From IMG/VR virus record IMGVR_UViG_2526164598_000016: DNA of 40,941 nt. The stretch is one strand, 5' to 3'. Below the pieces are notes generated by a model. That model was not told the DNA's origin, searched no databases, and worked only from the letters and a program-made list of their open reading frames with translations. Origin of the DNA: a virus. Its lineage: Duplodnaviria > Heunggongvirae > Uroviricota > Caudoviricetes. Below, piece by piece: positions 4,928 through 8,574 of the stretch. The position numbers and the translations under genes are program-made. The stretch's first letter is position 1; the number at the start of each line of letters is the position of its first letter.

Positions 4928-5122
4928 ATGTCAGAGCAGGAGTTAAAACTTGGTGCATGTTATTGTGTTCTCAAGGAGCTGGTACACATGCTTCCATCTA
5001 CTCAGTATCAACAGTTAGTTGGCAATTTAAATCAGCGAATCGAAGCTATGTTAAAATCTGATGGTTTTAATAACGTAGAAACGCTGATGCTAAAAAGATA
5101 TCTTGATGGATTAATCAGATAA
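4928..5122 (+). CDS. Small hypothetical protein (64 aa), plus-strand gene within a minus-strand early region
   Basis: ATG at 4928 preceded by GGAGGA (4917-4922); about 450 bp of non-coding DNA upstream; the 3' end overlaps the convergent minus-strand gene by 12 nt. Confidence 0.4.
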   Translation: MSEQELKLGACYCVLKELVHMLPSTQYQQLVGNLNQRIEAMLKSDGFNNVETLMLKRYLDGLIR

Positions 5123-5449
5123 CATTTTTTTACGGCGTTCATATTCGTTAATATTTATGAAGCCTGTTGCCAGAAGCAGTTCGTTAATTTCATGGTTGTT
5201 TGGCTGTTTCTGGCTCTTTGAGCTGGGATCTTCCACTTCTTTTTCTGCAAATTGTTTTGCTGTATCCTCTGTGCCATGGATATTTAAAGCTGTATCTGAA
5301 AACAGCCCAGTAAACGCATCGCGCACATTACGAGCCATATTATCAGTGTCTTTTTTTGTTACCGATTCCAATTCAAGTTCGTTCAGACGATGACGAAGTG
5401 TGTGTGCTGCAATCTCCTGGATTGAAGGAGGTAAATCTTTAAATTCCAT
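5111..5449 (-). CDS. Hypothetical protein (112 aa), acidic
   Basis: The internal ATG (MEFKDLPPSIQ…) has GAGG upstream; the ORF track extends 4 codons further to 5461. Confidence 0.45.
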   Translation of the reverse strand: MEFKDLPPSIQEIAAHTLRHRLNELELESVTKKDTDNMARNVRDAFTGLFSDTALNIHGTEDTAKQFAEKEVEDPSSKSQKQPNNHEINELLLATGFININEYERRKKMLSD

Positions 5450-5460
5450 CGTCAACCTCA

Positions 5461-5700
5461 TCAGTCAGTGTTTCTTGCTAACCAGCGATGCGCACCAGCT
5501 GCGGTTTTAAACGTTTTACTTTTGGTATACGTCATCGCGGTGAAGGTGCCGTCCTGGTTAGGGAACACACCGCATACCAGAGATTCGTTGTTGCCAAGAT
5601 TGAGCGTATCCATGTTGACCTCATTTCCCCTTAACGCCGGGGTAGCGGAACAAAAAACCTGCTGCGCTGTTATACAAAGTGTTCCCGCCGTCATGTTCAT
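5461..5700 (-). CDS. Small hypothetical protein, first gene of the leftward early transcript (alternative start at 5613 gives 50 aa)
   Basis: 79-aa ORF; both candidate ATGs (5700 and 5613) have GAGG-like SD; lies just downstream of the PL-like promoter/operator segment. Confidence 0.35.
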   Translation of the reverse strand: MNMTAGTLCITAQQVFCSATPALRGNEVNMDTLNLGNNESLVCGVFPNQDGTFTAMTYTKSKTFKTAAGAHRWLARNTD

Positions 5701-5780
5701 ACGCCTCGGGCTGGCTACTTAACCCCTGACCACTGCCGGGTAACTCGAAGTATTTCCCTGCGTTCTGTGGGGCGGGGTGG

Positions 5781-5830
5781 GTTGGTATTTTTAGTTTAAT
5801 AAACATTAAACTTAAGTCAAGTAAAAACTA
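5781..5830 (-). promoter_or_regulatory. Candidate leftward early promoter/operator (PL/OL-like)
   Basis: Contains TTGACT (reverse complement) and a segment that is an inverted copy of the PR/OR-like region at 6800-6860 (shared TACTTGACTTAA…GTTTATTAAAC and ACTAAACCG). Confidence 0.35.
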
Positions 5831-5904
5831 AACCGCGGGGCATAACAAACACAACGCTTTTGATAAAGTCGTTGCGGTTGTTATGTTTCTATTGGTAGTG
5901 AAAG

Positions 5905-6183
5905 TTAGGGAAACTGGCGTCTTGCGTGGATCACGTTTACTACTTCAACGCTTGATGTTGTTACGCGGTATAGAATTATATAGTTAGGGTGGGCTACAAT
6001 CTCACGCAAGCCAGGTACTCTGTCGCTTGGTGGGTATAAATACGGATGTTCGGATAACGGCAGCACACAACCCCTTAATCGCTGCCATAAGCGTTCAGCC
6101 GCATCTATGTCGAAACGAGCAATATAACTAGTTATATCATCTAGGTCGGTATCTGCGCTTTCAAGCCATAACACGGGTAACAT
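5905..6183 (-). CDS. RelE/ParE-family type II toxin (92 aa)
   Basis: MLPVLWLESADTDLDDITSYIA…VHARRQFP, typical ParE/RelE-fold sequence; start ATG sits 1 nt after the antitoxin stop (TAAAATG). Confidence 0.8.
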   Translation of the reverse strand: MLPVLWLESADTDLDDITSYIARFDIDAAERLWQRLRGCVLPLSEHPYLYPPSDRVPGLREIVAHPNYIILYRVTTSSVEVVNVIHARRQFP

Positions 6184-6184
6184 T

Positions 6185-6376
6185 TTACTGCTTGCTCCGT
6201 TCCTTACGCATCTTAGCAAAGCGTTCTGCCATTCTGCGCTCAACTTCGTCATGGGGAATTGCTGGGCGCGGATCTGCAAGGCTCGTTGCTACTTTCGCAC
6301 GCAGCCATTCGTTGTAACTGTTTTCTTGTTCAATGGTTTCAAATTCAGAAACCATTGGTGAAAGGGCTCTATTCAT
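6185..6376 (-). CDS. Cognate antitoxin (63 aa, ParD/StbD-like)
   Basis: Small acidic protein immediately upstream of and coupled to the toxin; GGAGG SD 6 nt upstream of the ATG at 6376. Confidence 0.75.
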   Translation of the reverse strand: MNRALSPMVSEFETIEQENSYNEWLRAKVATSLADPRPAIPHDEVERRMAERFAKMRKERSKQ

Positions 6377-6396
6377 GTTTCCTCCGGTTTTATAAC

Positions 6397-6675
6397 TCAG
6401 GCGCGGCGGCATTTTTGCGCCGCAATCCATCTCGCTATGAGATCTTCCATTGATTCTTTTTTCTGCTTTAACTCGCTGATTATCTGGCGTTGCTCATCCT
6501 CAGGGAAGGCTGAAAAAATCTGCAATAATTCCAGTTGATTAGACGTTAACCCTGCATGTGGTGGAGAAACCCCCGGTTGTTCTGCGTATTCCGCATCCAG
6601 ATACCCTTCCGGCATCCCGTATGTTTGCTCTATTCTTCTGGCAGCCTTTTCTCCAAACGAGGCTCTCCCACTCAT
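6397..6675 (-). CDS. Prophage repressor (CI-like recognition helix, DicA/RacR-like C-terminal region); the N-terminal part is displaced by a frameshift in an A7 tract (see findings)
   Basis: Frame continues upstream without a start codon as …KKEIRRLRLKEWFKDKTLPPKEKSYLSQLMSGRASFGEKAARRIEQ…; the only ATG (6767-6765) is one frame off across the A7 run; C-terminus has NQLELLQIFSAFPEDEQ. Confidence 0.6.
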   Translation of the reverse strand: MSGRASFGEKAARRIEQTYGMPEGYLDAEYAEQPGVSPPHAGLTSNQLELLQIFSAFPEDEQRQIISELKQKKESMEDLIARWIAAQKCRRA

Positions 6676-6788
6676 TAGTTGAGATAGGTAGCTCTTCTCT
6701 TTGGGTGGCAGAGTTTTATCTTTAAACCACTCCTTGAGACGTAAACGGCGAATTTCTTTTTTTGCATGTGGTAATTATCTTTAGTAAT

Positions 6789-6854
6789 CACTAAACAAGC
6801 AAATACTTGACTTAATGGTTTATTAAACACTAAACTCGCAAAAAAACACTAAAC
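6789..6854 (+). promoter_or_regulatory. Candidate PR/OR: three direct CACTAAAC repeats and a TTGACT -35
   Basis: CACTAAAC at 6789-6796, 6828-6835 and 6847-6854; TTGACT at 6806-6811; lies between the divergent repressor and Cro-like genes. Confidence 0.4.
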
Positions 6855-6864
6855 CGAGGAAGGT

Positions 6865-7167
6865 ATGACATTAAAAGAGTTTATTAAATCATTAAGGGTT
6901 GGTGATGCTAAGAAATTCGCGGCCAGACTTGGTGTATCGCCATCTTACTTATCGCAAATGGCGTCTGGACGAACAGCTATATCTCCAACCCGCGCCCTTA
7001 TGATCGAATCTGCGACGGAAGGCCAAGTAAGTAGGGCGGAGCTACGACCCCATGATTGGGAGCTTATTTGGCCTGAGTATGCGAGCGGCATTCGTTTGGG
7101 GCAAACACATGTAGTTCATGCTGAAGGTGATTGTAGTACATGCTTATCTGATGGAGTTGATTCATGA
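6865..7167 (+). CDS. Cro/YdaS-family HTH regulator
   Basis: MTLKEFIKSL…GVSPSYLSQMASGRTAISP…LRPHDWELIWPEY; resembles YdaS-type Cro proteins of Rac-like prophages (recalled); SD GAGGAAGG. Confidence 0.75.
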   Translation: MTLKEFIKSLRVGDAKKFAARLGVSPSYLSQMASGRTAISPTRALMIESATEGQVSRAELRPHDWELIWPEYASGIRLGQTHVVHAEGDCSTCLSDGVDS

Positions 7168-7589
7168 AAATCAAGCATGAACACATCCGCATGGCGATGA
7201 ATGTCTGGGCGCATCCGGACGGCGAAAAAGTACCGGCTGCGAAAATTACCAAAGCGTATTTCGAGCTGGGAATGACGTTCCCGGAACTGTATGACGACAG
7301 CCATCCGGAAGCCCTGGCCCGTAATACCCAGAAAATTTTCCGTTGGCTGGATAAAGACACCCCTGATGCTGTTGAAAAAATGCAGGCTCTGTTACCGGCG
7401 ATCGAAAAGGCGATGCCGCCTTTGCTGGTGGCCCGTATGCGCAGCCACAGTTCTGAATATTACCGTGAGATCGTCGAACGGAGGGATCGGCTGGTGAAGG
7501 ATGTCGATGATTTTGTTGCGTCAGCGGTTGTTTTGTATGACCAGATGAATCGCGGCGGCCCGGCAGGGAATGCTGTGGTGATGCACTAA
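7164..7589 (+). CDS. YdaT-like protein (141 aa)
   Basis: ATGA-coupled to the preceding gene; the position after the Cro-like gene and the sequence style match ydaT of Rac-like prophages (recalled). Confidence 0.65.
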   Translation: MKIKHEHIRMAMNVWAHPDGEKVPAAKITKAYFELGMTFPELYDDSHPEALARNTQKIFRWLDKDTPDAVEKMQALLPAIEKAMPPLLVARMRSHSSEYYREIVERRDRLVKDVDDFVASAVVLYDQMNRGGPAGNAVVMH

Positions 7590-7611
7590 AAGCACGGTGT
7601 TCGGGGGTTTT

Positions 7612-8574
7612 ATGAGCAGCAAACTTCATGGTCTTGTCTGGGAAGGGTGCGCCTTCACCGGCATGATCTTATCCAGGGTGGCGGTTATGGCCCGTCTTGC
7701 AGACTACAGCAATGACGAGGGTGTGTCATGGCCTGCCATTGAAACTATCCGGCGTCAGATCGGTGCAAGAAGTGAATCCACAGTGAAATCGGCTATTGCA
7801 GAACTGGCGAAAGAGGGCTGGCTGACGAAGGAAGAGCGTAAGGTCGGTGGGCGTAATGTAAGCAATATCTATCGGCTTAATGTGGAAAAACTCGAAGCAG
7901 CTGCGGCGGCGGCGCGTGAGTCATATAAACCGAAAAGAAAAATTAGCCCGGCAAAAAATGACCCGTTAACAGTTGACCCGTCAAATATTGACCCCTCAAC
8001 GGTTGACCCGTCAAATTTTGATGGATCAACTGTTGATAAAAAACTGCCGATTAGGGGGGCGATGATTGACCCCGATCCGTCAGTATTAAAACCTGATCCG
8101 TCAGATAAAAGATCTTCTTGTCCGGACGCTTCGCAACCGGACCCGCAGACGGCTGAACAGGATTTTTTAACCCGACACCCTGACGCGGTTGTGTTCAGTG
8201 CGAAAAAACGCCAGTGGGGAAGTCAGGAAGATTTGGTGTGCGCACAGTGGATCTGGGGACGAATCGTGAGTCTTTACGAGCAGGCGGCCAGCTATGATGG
8301 CGAGATCACTAGACCGAAAGAACCCAACTGGACAGCATGGGCCAATGACGTTCGCACAATGCGGATGCTGGATGGCAGAACTCACAGACAAATTTGTGAA
8401 ATGTTTGGGCGTCTCCAGCGGGATTCGTTCTGGGTAAAAAACATCATGAGTCCGGCAAAACTCCGGGAAAAATGGGATGAACTGGTTATCCGCCTGGGGC
8501 GTTCGCCTGCGCAGCGTTGCGTGAATCACATTTCTGAACCGGACACTGAAATTCCGCCGGGCTTCAGGGGGTAA
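7612..8574 (+). CDS. Replication initiation protein (O-like; N-terminal HTH, iterons inside the gene)
   Basis: ATG at 7612 with GGGGG SD (the ORF track begins at a GTG at 7597); N-terminal winged-helix-like region; embedded iteron array encodes the DPSxVDPSN peptide repeats. Confidence 0.7.
   Translation: MSSKLHGLVWEGCAFTGMILSRVAVMARLADYSNDEGVSWPAIETIRRQIGARSESTVKSAIAELAKEGWLTKEERKVGGRNVSNIYRLNVEKLEAAAAAARESYKPKRKISPAKNDPLTVDPSNIDPSTVDPSNFDGSTVDKKLPIRGAMIDPDPSVLKPDPSDKRSSCPDASQPDPQTAEQDFLTRHPDAVVFSAKKRQWGSQEDLVCAQWIWGRIVSLYEQAASYDGEITRPKEPNWTAWANDVRTMRMLDGRTHRQICEMFGRLQRDSFWVKNIMSPAKLREKWDELVIRLGRSPAQRCVNHISEPDTEIPPGFRG
7958..8020 (+). repeat. Iteron array (about 15-bp period, TGACCCGTCAA core), candidate replication origin
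   Basis: TGACCCGTTAACAGT / TGACCCGTCAAATAT / TGACCCCTCAACGGT / TGACCCGTCAAATTT in tandem, with degenerate copies following. Confidence 0.55.

Follow-up and report, generated by a model that had tools for sequence, protein, structure and literature searches.

The closest described counterpart of the locus analyzed here is the immunity region carried by the CP-933P-type prophage of Escherichia coli, whose OL/OR pair is already known and was experimentally defined in 2021 (PMC8630535). In that system, the CI-like PaaR2 and the Cro-like YdaS bind OR and repress PR, PRM, and PL, with repression of PR and PRM of up to 45-fold. EMSA and DNase I footprints on a 97-bp fragment, which corresponds to positions 6768 to 6864 of our sequence, show ~78 bp protected by PaaR2 and 65 bp protected by YdaS, and the operators are 18-bp inverted repeats with the half-site consensus GTTTAGTAA. 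The leftward promoter PL933P has -35 and -10 hexamers identical to those of PR933P and is associated with operators described as OL1 to OL3. Transcription start sites and bistability were also shown for the locus, and looping between OL and OR was suggested from the octamerization of PaaR2 (PMC8630535).

The window is the whole stretch of DNA that we analyzed, 40,941 nucleotides of a Caudoviricetes record (IMGVR_UViG_2526164598_000016). We conclude, with a probability of about 0.92, that positions 5787 to 5838 form the left control region (OL/PL), and positions 6768 to 6864 the right one (OR/PRM/PR), of an immunity switch belonging to a lambdoid E. coli prophage of the CP-933P/Sp12 type. Because experiments had already established the locus's operators, promoters, and regulators in 2021, recognition of the OL/OR pair is a correct rediscovery from raw sequence and carries little weight alone.

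Identity of the locus and its genes

Gene order, encoded proteins, and primer matches identify the locus as the paaR2-paaA2-parE2/ydaS-ydaT immunity region of a prophage of the CP-933P type. Exact matches to the window were found for 23 of the 25 primers of Jurenas et al. 2021 (PMC8630535), and within positions 5787 to 7611 all primers are exact except F-1-PaaR2, which spans an A-run. The primer pairs for the EMSA, footprint, PR, PRM, PL, and PRE reporter fragments are each exact in the window, placing the EMSA fragment at 6768 to 6864, the footprint amplicon at 6719 to 6906, the PR-gfp fragment at 6767 to 6840, and the PL-gfp fragment at 5787 to 5904; identity with EDL933 was checked at these primer sites, and the matches there make any difference from EDL933 within the operators very unlikely. 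The gap between paaR2 and ydaS (6768 to 6864) is 97 bp, equal to the published one (PMC8630535). Over positions 5400 to 7700, the best complete E. coli genome is 99.9% identical to the window and none is identical. Over positions 5115 to 8400, ATCC 25922 and the window show four differences, which are three substitutions and a missing base in the paaR2 A-run.

The paaR2-paaA2-parE2 operon is divergent from ydaS-ydaT, as judged from gene coordinates, Pfam matches for PaaA2, ParE, YdaS, and YdaT, and matches to PDB 7NKV and 5CW7. The leaderless gene of the CI-analogue repressor, paaR2 (6397 to 6767, minus strand), is frameshifted in the window, and its transcript starts at the A of the ATG (6767), onto which the PRM start was mapped in PMC8630535. 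The N-terminal domain of intact PaaR2 is identical to PDB 7NKV over residues 1 to 66; a Pfam search of PaaR2 gave no hit, and the protein lacks an S24 peptidase domain (PMC8630535). A literature search on PDB codes 7NKV, 8C3K, and 8C3L found no relevant paper. Downstream on the same strand lie the gene for the 63-aa antitoxin PaaA2 (6185 to 6376; Pfam PaaA2, PF21217, E = 1e-19) and the gene for the 92-aa toxin ParE2 (5905 to 6183; Pfam ParE_toxin, E = 1.9e-16; PDB 5CW7/5CZE ParE2, E = 7e-60 over residues 1 to 92). The parE2 stop codon is followed, also on the minus strand, by a hairpin (5841 to 5885) with 21-nt arms that are 81% complementary. Its predicted RNA fold has a stability of -23.5 kcal/mol and a z-score of -4.3, and none of 200 shuffles is as stable; the hairpin is probably the terminator of the paaR2-paaA2-parE2 operon.

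On the plus strand, ydaS (6865 to 7167) encodes the 100-aa Cro analogue, which has matches to Pfam YdaS_toxin and HTH_3, and primers F-YdaS and R-YdaS are exact. YdaT, the CII analogue, also has a Pfam hit. In the PRE region, where ydaS meets ydaT, TTGATTCATGAAAATCAA (7157 to 7174) is a candidate YdaT operator by motif match: TTGATTN6AATCAA, given as the YdaT motif in PMC9986795, has its single match in the window there and none in 100 shuffles. The sequence-only reading took a repressor-TA cassette to be flanked by OL and OR, some 1 kb from each other, and this proposal is borne out by the exact primers of PMC8630535, the 97-bp gap, and the PDB matches of PaaR2 and ParE2. OL lies ~1 kb from OR rather than ~0.5 kb because the passenger genes paaA2 and parE2 intervene.

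Operators and promoters of the two control regions

The sequence-only reading described positions 5781 to 5830 as largely an inverted copy of positions 6800 to 6860 and named formal alignment of the two segments beforehand as a test. Both orientations give significant similarity. When the reverse complement of 5781 to 5840 is locally aligned with 6768 to 6864, the score is 30, which 3 of 2,000 dinucleotide-preserving shuffles reach and which exceeds that of every other 60-nt tile of the window (at most 26), although the alignment requires a 5-nt indel. The direct alignment of 5793 to 5838 with 6818 to 6859 is stronger, with a score of 37 that no shuffle (0/2,000) reaches, so that the two segments are inverted copies only in part. 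The same is true of the shared blocks. The 12 nt of TACTTGACTTAA at 6804 to 6815, including the -35 box, recur perfectly in inverted orientation at 5812 to 5823, and GTTTATTAAAC at 6818 to 6828 is the reverse complement of 5794 to 5804, but ACTAAACCG is a direct repeat (5827 to 5835 and 6848 to 6856). The segments are alike in both orientations because the repeated unit, GTTTAGTAA followed by TTACTAAAC, is itself an 18-bp palindrome, and this palindrome is enriched in both segments.

These repeats might instead be the terminal repeats of a mobile repressor-TA cassette, in which case they would be recombination sites and not operators. They do bracket paaR2-paaA2-parE2 with a 12-nt perfect inverted repeat on each side, and the suggestion in PMC8630535 that the immunity region acquired the TA genes by insertion counts in the same direction. 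However, the direct alignment beats the inverted one, no transposase or integrase gene was found between the repeats among the open reading frames and Pfam matches, and the right repeat lies outside the repressor gene, in the region footprinted by the repressor (PMC8630535). Together with the relatives described below, this makes a mobile cassette extremely unlikely.

The three direct copies of CACTAAAC that had been noticed in the right segment are the only copies in the whole window (6789, 6828, and 6847, all on the plus strand and within 66 bp), where ~0.88 would be expected in 40.9 kb. All four occurrences of ACTAAAC in the window are likewise inside the two segments. The earlier choice of CACTAAAC as the candidate operator half-site agrees with the published half-site GTTTAGTAA, the reverse complement of which, TTACTAAAC, has the same ACTAAAC core. 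In an 18-mer scan of the 40.9-kb window, the consensus is matched best by the two OR sites at 6779 to 6835 (16 and 15 of 18) and the two OL sites at 5794 to 5833 (14 of 18 each), and the next best is 12. The consensus was taken from PMC8630535 and is itself derived from the same sequence, so this ranking within the window is partly circular, and the cross-species result is the independent support. The operator coordinates given below were set from the primers and our own 18-mer scan, not from the published OL1-3/OR1-3 names.

Multiple related palindromic operators lie over the divergent PRM and PR promoters, as judged from the 18-mer scan, the promoter scan, and the geometry kept in relatives. 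IR1, CTTTAGTAATCACTAAAC (6779 to 6796), fills the PRM spacer, is the best match in the window (16/18), and lies within the footprinted 97-bp fragment; relatives keep it at position -29 relative to the repressor ATG. A degenerate operator position corresponding to IR2 of PMC8630535 is placed by even spacing at 6799 to 6816, over the -35 boxes of PRM and PR, which stand back to back. It includes TACTTGACT, a 7/9 half-site, and the segment GTCAAGTATTTGCTT is kept in relatives; IR2 was described as conserved in one half only (PMC8630535). IR3, GTTTATTAAACACTAAAC (6818 to 6835), overlaps the PR spacer and -10 box and is the second-best match in the window (15/18). The half-operator IR4, GCAAAAAAACACTAAACC (6838 to 6855), lies over the start of the PR transcript, contains the third CACTAAAC copy, and is a direct repeat of 5818 to 5838. 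Only its right half, ACACTAAAC, is conserved, as described in PMC8630535, and IR4 is missing from most relatives.

The promoter scan identified PR (PR933P; 6807 to 6836, plus strand), which drives ydaS-ydaT and lies inside the primer-defined PR-gfp fragment. The TTGACT -35 box that had been seen facing the Cro-like gene is at 6807 to 6812 and is indeed paired, after an 18-nt spacer, with a TAAACT -10 box (6831 to 6836). The same scan of the window did not pick up PRM (PRM933P; 6774 to 6802, minus strand), whose hexamers we infer from sequence and spacing to be TTGCTT (6802 to 6797) and, after a 17-nt spacer, GATAAT (6779 to 6774); TTGCTT, the 17-nt spacer, and CAAAAT/GATAAT are kept upstream of homologues.

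Since the repeats overlap the promoter of the TA genes, PRM, they could also be read as TA autoregulatory operators bound by a PaaA2-ParE2 complex in the classical type II style; most type II TA operons are autoregulated via palindromes at their own promoter. PaaA2 is poorly suited to this role, as its Pfam search found no family besides PF21217 (a 33-position model of the toxin-binding segment) and no DNA-binding domain, and PMC8630535 reports no DNA-binding motifs in it. Moreover, the regulation depends on PaaR2, YdaS, and YdaT (PMC8630535), and the operators are also present in relatives without any TA genes. Autoregulation by the TA complex is thus scarcely credible.

A second operator cluster lies over a leftward promoter beyond the repressor operon, where 5794 to 5811 and 5816 to 5833 enclose a minus-strand TTGACT-16-TAAACT. 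The predicted promoter-proximal operator, GTTTAATAAACATTAAAC (5794 to 5811), is an 18-bp palindrome that overlaps the PL -10 box and is joint third best in the window (14/18). It aligns directly with the OR operator at 6818 to 6835, and an equivalent site is kept downstream of PaaR2 homologues. The predicted promoter-distal 18-bp operator, GTCAAGTAAAAACTAAAC (5816 to 5833; 14/18), contains the PL -35 box in its left half and aligns directly with 6838 to 6855; its motif GTTTAnTnnTTACTTGAC is kept in relatives. PL (PL933P; 5793 to 5820, minus strand), found by the promoter scan, has its -35 TTGACT at 5820 to 5815 and, after a 16-nt spacer, its -10 TAAACT at 5798 to 5793. It reads leftward into a DUF1391 gene and lies inside the PL-gfp fragment (primers F-PL and R-PL). 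Reporter repression and sequence similarity point to action of the repressor and Cro analogue at OL, presumably by direct binding.

A plainer account of the left segment is that strong promoters were duplicated, with extra likeness from an AT-rich context, and that the left copy has no operator function. PL and PR share identical -35 (TTGACT) and -10 (TAAACT) boxes, both segments are ~70% A+T, and the evidence for OL consists of reporters and sequence. However, PL-gfp is repressed ~100-fold by PaaR2 or YdaS (PMC8630535), the likeness is not confined to the hexamers but takes in full 18-bp palindromes, other AT-rich tiles of the window score no more than 25, compared with 37 for the real pair, and the OL palindromes are kept across genera despite divergence of the flanks. 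We regard duplication of promoters as very unlikely. The transposon-end, TA-autoregulation, and plain promoter-duplication readings are all rejected, on the basis of cargo-free relatives, PaaA2, and PL repression, respectively.

Under the preferred reading of the segments as OL and OR, the operator unit is the 18-bp palindrome GTTTA(G/T)TAA joined to TTA(C)TAAAC, which the CI analogue PaaR2 reads through its helix-turn-helix N-terminal domain, with the Cro analogue YdaS binding overlapping sites. At OR, one full palindrome occupies the PRM spacer and a second the PR spacer and -10 box, with a degenerate site over both -35 boxes and an extra half-site over the PR transcript start. At OL, PL is enclosed by two palindromes 22 bp apart, with the -35 box in the distal and the -10 box in the proximal operator. 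Repressor on these sites shuts PR and PL, and stimulates PRM at low concentration but represses it at high concentration. YdaS has the reverse role, shutting PRM first, and with the repressor forms a bistable switch. The paaA2-parE2 genes ride along as passengers, transcribed from PRM together with the repressor gene, like rexAB in lambda. The exact base contacts and the looping of OL to OR by a PaaR2 octamer are the presumptive steps of this mechanism.

The adenine run in paaR2

The homopolymer at 6757 to 6763 in paaR2 is A7 on the coding strand instead of A8, and the loss of one base causes a frameshift after codon 4. The F-1-PaaR2 primer matches the window with one deletion, and alignment to ATCC 25922 places one gap in the run. 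Read from its ATG, the window paaR2 encodes MQKKKFAV and so on, a 30-aa out-of-frame peptide followed by a stop, rather than intact PaaR2 (123 aa, N terminus MQKKE). As sequenced, paaR2 is either a pseudogene or a sequencing error. PaaR2 may not be made from this window, unless the homopolymer was missequenced, and, should the window sequence be right, YdaS alone would be left to occupy the operators here, because paaR2 is frameshifted. We still count the locus as a CP-933P-type member because its cis elements are intact.

The A7 allele occurs in the ATCC 25922-like haplotype found here and in three pig ETEC genomes with a prophage that differs from the window at 177 positions, which indicates that it arose at least twice or reflects a recurrent homopolymer sequencing error. 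That the A8 run, in codons 2 to 4 of the leaderless paaR2, is a slippage-prone contingency tract in which loss or gain of one A switches the repressor off or on is an unlikely but conceivable extension. If it were true, the OL/OR switch would go over to its YdaS state, and the paaA2-parE2 addiction genes would be expressed differently. Those who work with the prophage of this strain as a model should be aware that its repressor gene is frameshifted.

Relatives and known systems

For comparison, 28 loci that encode a PaaR2 homologue in other species or phages were examined; five records of the phage collection have a PaaR2 relative, and the scan of species-representative genomes was more productive. 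Two palindromes 37 to 39 bp apart are present upstream of the repressor gene in 23 of the 28 loci, with the IR3 equivalent at -67/-68 from the repressor ATG, and a downstream site of at least 14/18 is present in 21, at +408 to +2293. In 143 kb of relative loci there are 76 sites of at least 14/18, all at the upstream or downstream position. The OR and OL geometry thus recurs beside PaaR2-type repressors in most of the 28 loci, with or without a cargo gene between the repressor and OL, which argues that the repeats are not the ends of a mobile TA cassette. Four loci without cargo (L003, L013, L015, and L026) keep the palindromes right after the repressor gene, at +494, +499, +500, and +451, respectively; the repeats therefore belong with the repressor and not with the TA genes, and they do not travel with a cassette.

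That, in many Enterobacterales and some Burkholderiales, operator sequence and geometry recur wherever such PaaR2-type N-terminal domains were found beside them goes beyond PMC8630535. This wide conservation narrows the real recognition element to the GTTTA...TAAAC cores and speaks for an ancestral origin of just two of the four OR repeats. Also beyond that paper are the frameshifted repressor gene of this copy and a variable cargo slot between the repressor gene and OL; the slot holds the TA pair here and is empty or holds other genes in relatives. Conventionally, PaaR2 octamers could loop OL to OR around this slot of 0.45 to 2.3 kb.

Klebsiella phage 5 LV-2017 and loci of Xenorhabdus, Photorhabdus, Yersinia, Erwinia, and others share the 18-bp palindrome and the 37- to 39-bp OR spacing with the window, and their OL is like that of the window, with the -35 box in the distal and the -10 box in the proximal operator. 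Their repressors are 43 to 57% identical to PaaR2 where the alignment exceeds the N-terminal domain and 61 to 76% identical where only ~60 N-terminal residues are aligned. Many of these repressors have an S24 peptidase C-terminal domain, in contrast to the short PaaR2 tail, and the loci have either other cargo between repressor and OL or none. Our literature search found no experimental study of these PaaR2-type relative loci.

Phage lambda resembles the locus in several respects. Both place a set of palindromic operators between the repressor gene and cro or its analogue, where PRM and PR diverge, and a second cluster of operators at PL, on the other side of the repressor operon. In both, the repressor mRNA is leaderless, passenger genes (rexAB in lambda) are transcribed together with the repressor gene, and the repressor forms octamers. 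In contrast, PaaR2 has no Pfam hit that would make it a sequence homologue of CI, and it has no S24 peptidase domain; the 18-bp units here are of other sequence than the 17-bp sites of lambda, and OR has two strong and two half-conserved sites instead of three. The distance between OL and OR is ~2.3 to 2.4 kb in lambda, compared with ~1 kb here.

The Rac prophage of E. coli K-12 also has a repressor gene divergent from ydaS-ydaT, and the YdaS and YdaT Pfam families are common to both; the Rac and CP-933P modules are treated as related in the literature (PMC8630535). However, YdaS and YdaT are 26% and 31% identical, respectively, to the Rac proteins (PMC8630535), and RacR is a different repressor.

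The likeness to CP-933P itself (EDL933; Sp12 in Sakai) is the closest, since the DNA is essentially alike wherever it could be checked and the gap, gene order, and proteins are shared with the window. Nevertheless, the window differs from CP-933P in its frameshifting A7 run in place of A8, in the region left of PL, which is unlike EDL933 and contains no match to primer R-CP933P, and in its nearest complete genomes, which are ATCC 25922-like and not O157.

Identity of the locus and nature of the repeats

The region at 5781-6860 comprises three leftward genes and their flanks, with ydaS and ydaT rightward of them. The leftward genes are parE2 (5905-6183; 92 aa, Pfam ParE_toxin, matching PDB 5CW7 with an E value of 7e-60), the PaaA2 antitoxin gene (6185-6376; 63 aa, Pfam PaaA2), and the repressor gene paaR2 (6397-6767, minus strand, ATG at 6767), whose intact form has the same residues 1-66 as PDB 7NKV, deposited under the title "Phage repressor protein CI." The plus-strand genes encode a YdaS-family helix-turn-helix protein (6865-7167; 100 aa, Pfam YdaS_toxin/HTH_3) and a YdaT-family protein (7164-7589; Pfam YdaT_toxin). 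Jurenas et al. (mBio 2021, PMC8630535) have described this locus as the paaR2-paaA2-parE2/ydaS-ydaT immunity region of the cryptic prophage CP-933P. The paaR2-ydaS gap is 97 bp, equal to the published figure, and 23 of the 25 oligonucleotides in Table S3 of that paper map exactly onto the window. By primer mapping, the published EMSA fragment is 6768-6864, the footprint amplicon is 6719-6906, and the reporter fragments are 6767-6840 (PR and PRM), 5787-5904 (PL), and 7073-7192 (PRE).

In that work, both PaaR2 and YdaS bound specifically in EMSAs and left DNase I footprints (~78 bp and 65 bp, respectively). The DNA carries four 18-bp inverted repeats at even spacing, with the half-site consensus GTTTAGTAA. 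Each protein represses both PR933P and PRM933P, and low PaaR2 activates PRM; transcription starts were mapped, and paaR2 translation is leaderless. Looping between OL and OR through a PaaR2 octamer was only suggested by the authors (PMC8630535). The sequence-only reading of an OL/OR pair about 1 kb apart, with TTGACT as the -35 box of the rightward promoter, is therefore supported, and the feature was already known. Its candidate half-site, CACTAAAC, was also correct; on the opposite strand it reads GTTTAGTG, which differs from the published GTTTAGTA by one base.

The same reading described the left segment as largely an inverted copy of the right, which holds in part. When the reverse complement of 5781-5840 is aligned locally with 6768-6864, the score is 30, a value reached by 3 of 2,000 dinucleotide-preserving shuffles. 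In direct orientation, 5793-5838 aligns more strongly with 6818-6859 (score 37, reached by 0 of 2,000 shuffles), and ACTAAACCG, which had been assigned to the inverted part, is a direct repeat between the segments. Similarity is thus significant in both orientations because the repeated unit is palindromic. Against the right segment, all other 60-nt tiles of the window, including those rich in A+T, score 26 at most. The inverted component includes a perfect pair, TACTTGACTTAA at 6804-6815 versus 5812-5823, and a 24-nt pair (5794-5817/6805-6828) that is 79% complementary. The three CACTAAAC copies that had been noticed on the right all lie within 6789-6854 and occur nowhere else in 40.9 kb (expected whole-window count, ~0.88), and every one of the four ACTAAAC copies is within the two segments.

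Primer R-CP933P marks the left end of the pCP-933P insert in the published work and matches nowhere in the window, even at five errors. The early-left region beyond PL (left of ~5787) therefore differs from that of EDL933. On this side of PL, the window also shows many mismatches (5470-5760) to phage Evi and ETEC1732.

Operators, promoters, and the paaR2 reading frame

When each 18-mer of the window is scored against GTTTAGTAATTACTAAAC, there are four outliers: OR operators at 6779-6796 (16/18) and 6818-6835 (15/18) and predicted OL operators at 5816-5833 (distal) and 5794-5811 (proximal), both 14/18. The best score elsewhere in the window is 12. An independent scan for consensus promoters found PL on the minus strand (TTGACT-16-TAAACT, 5820-5793) and PR on the plus strand (TTGACT-18-TAAACT, 6807-6836), with identical hexamers. 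The -35 box of PL lies within the distal operator and its -10 box within the proximal operator, and the 6818-6835 operator extends over the PR spacer and -10 box. Since the published start is the first base of the paaR2 ATG (A at 6767), we infer that PRM consists of TTGCTT (6802-6797), a 17-nt spacer, and GATAAT (6779-6774); this spacer is filled by the operator at 6779-6796. A half-conserved site at 6838-6855, which holds the third CACTAAAC copy (6847-6854), sits over the PR transcript start.

A further operator-like 18-mer, GTTTATTAAATCATTAAG (6879-6896; 12/18, left half 8/9), lies inside ydaS codons 5 to 11. The PR-proximal operator is 61 bp upstream of this 18-mer, which pairs with 6811-6831 as a 21-nt inverted repeat (86%). 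PMC8630535 does not mention it, although the published footprint amplicon contains it; the match may represent a weak additional operator or have arisen by chance. The sole window match to the operator motif of YdaT, the CII analogue (TTGATTN6AATCAA, published in PMC9986795), is TTGATTCATGAAAATCAA at 7157-7174, which overlaps both the stop codon of ydaS and the start codon of ydaT within the PRE reporter fragment.

Directly after parE2 is a stable minus-strand hairpin (5841-5885; -23.5 kcal/mol, z = -4.3), which is probably the operon terminator, separating the operon from PL, so that PRM read-through would enter PL. The U-rich stretch after the hairpin overlaps the distal OL operator.

The coding-strand A-run that follows ATGC in paaR2 has seven A's in the window (T7 at 6757-6763, plus strand) versus eight in the EDL933 primer and in ATCC 25922, a near E. 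coli relative from which the window differs over 5115-8400 by three substitutions besides the missing A. Reading from the ATG gives MQKKKFAVYVSRSGLKIKLCHPKRRATYLN and then a stop, with the frameshift after codon 4. The stretch is present in 593 complete E. coli genomes. Just 3 of them, sister isolates of pig ETEC, match the window exactly across the run; identity is in the 95 to 99% band for the remaining 590, with a one-base difference in every such genome among the matches listed. PGAP annotates a shortened open reading frame in the three ETEC isolates; the window has ATT where its start codon maps. Over 5470-8400, 177 positions separate their prophage from the window. The seven-A allele is thus present in clearly different haplotypes, and it either arose twice by recurrent slippage or reflects a sequencing error that recurs at this homopolymer. 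With a real seven-A allele, YdaS would be the only one of the two proteins to occupy the operators of this copy.

Operators and cargo in PaaR2 relatives

The relatives gathered were Escherichia phage Evi, Klebsiella phage 5 LV-2017, and 27 loci from species-representative genomes (including Xenorhabdus, Photorhabdus, Arsenophonus, Morganella, Raoultella, Enterobacter, Yersinia, Erwinia, Mycoavidus, Glomeribacter, and Massilia); counts are over 28 loci, with Evi left out, at a site threshold of at least 14/18. The motif search bears out the proposed operators: 23 of 28 loci have two palindromes upstream of the repressor gene, spaced 37 to 39 bp and usually starting at -67/-68 and -29 from the ATG, and 21 of 28 have a downstream site at +408 to +2293. 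The 143 kb examined contains 76 such sites, every one at either the upstream or the downstream location. A G-T-T-T-A core is nearly invariant in the half-site matrix, the inter-operator segment GTCAAGTATTTGCTT is conserved with both back-to-back -35 boxes, and the OL design (GTTTAnTnnTTACTTGAC, 4 to 5 nt, GTTTAnTnnTTAnTAAAC, then T) recurs across genera; the additional half-site at the start of the PR transcript is specific to the lineage of E. coli and Evi. Also conserved is a -10-like CAAAAT, six or seven bases 5' of the ATG, which suggests that leaderless expression is ancestral in much of the family. In Xenorhabdus/Photorhabdus loci L005-L012, L016, and L018, the OR palindromes are mostly at -114 to -116 and -77 to -79, and in L006 and L016 further upstream still, versus the usual -67 and -29, so these repressor mRNAs would have a leader rather than being leaderless.

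The repeats could instead mark the ends of a mobile toxin-antitoxin (TA) cassette. This is rejected, since several relatives without a passenger gene keep OL palindromes directly after the repressor gene (e.g., at +494 in L003, +499 in L013, +500 in L015, and +451 in L026). Classical TA autoregulation is ruled out because PaaA2 has no DNA-binding domain, according to Pfam and PMC8630535. Judged from these locus comparisons, the TA pair sits between the repressor and OL in a slot of variable content, which agrees with the hypothesis in PMC8630535 that the TA genes were inserted into the immunity region. The slot from repressor stop to OL is empty in L003, L013, L015, and L026, holds paaA2-parE2 (5905-6376) in E. 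coli, and carries other cargo in L019, L021, L024, L025, and L031, namely, unrelated open reading frames of 83 to 308 aa (Yersinia, Mycoavidus, and others).

One N-terminal domain and operator set is found with two C-termini, the short PaaR2 type (123 aa) and a putative S24 peptidase (LexA/CI-like, ~210 aa), and thus the operator goes with the N-terminal domain. The S24-type repressor genes are in L019, L021, L022, L024, L025, L028, and L029, starting at 2501 (2152 in L021); their C-terminal part of ~150 aa has the GDSM motif of S24 (LexA/CI) peptidases, recognized by eye. Compared with these repressors, PaaR2 looks like a variant in which the SOS-cleavable domain has been swapped for a short helical tail.
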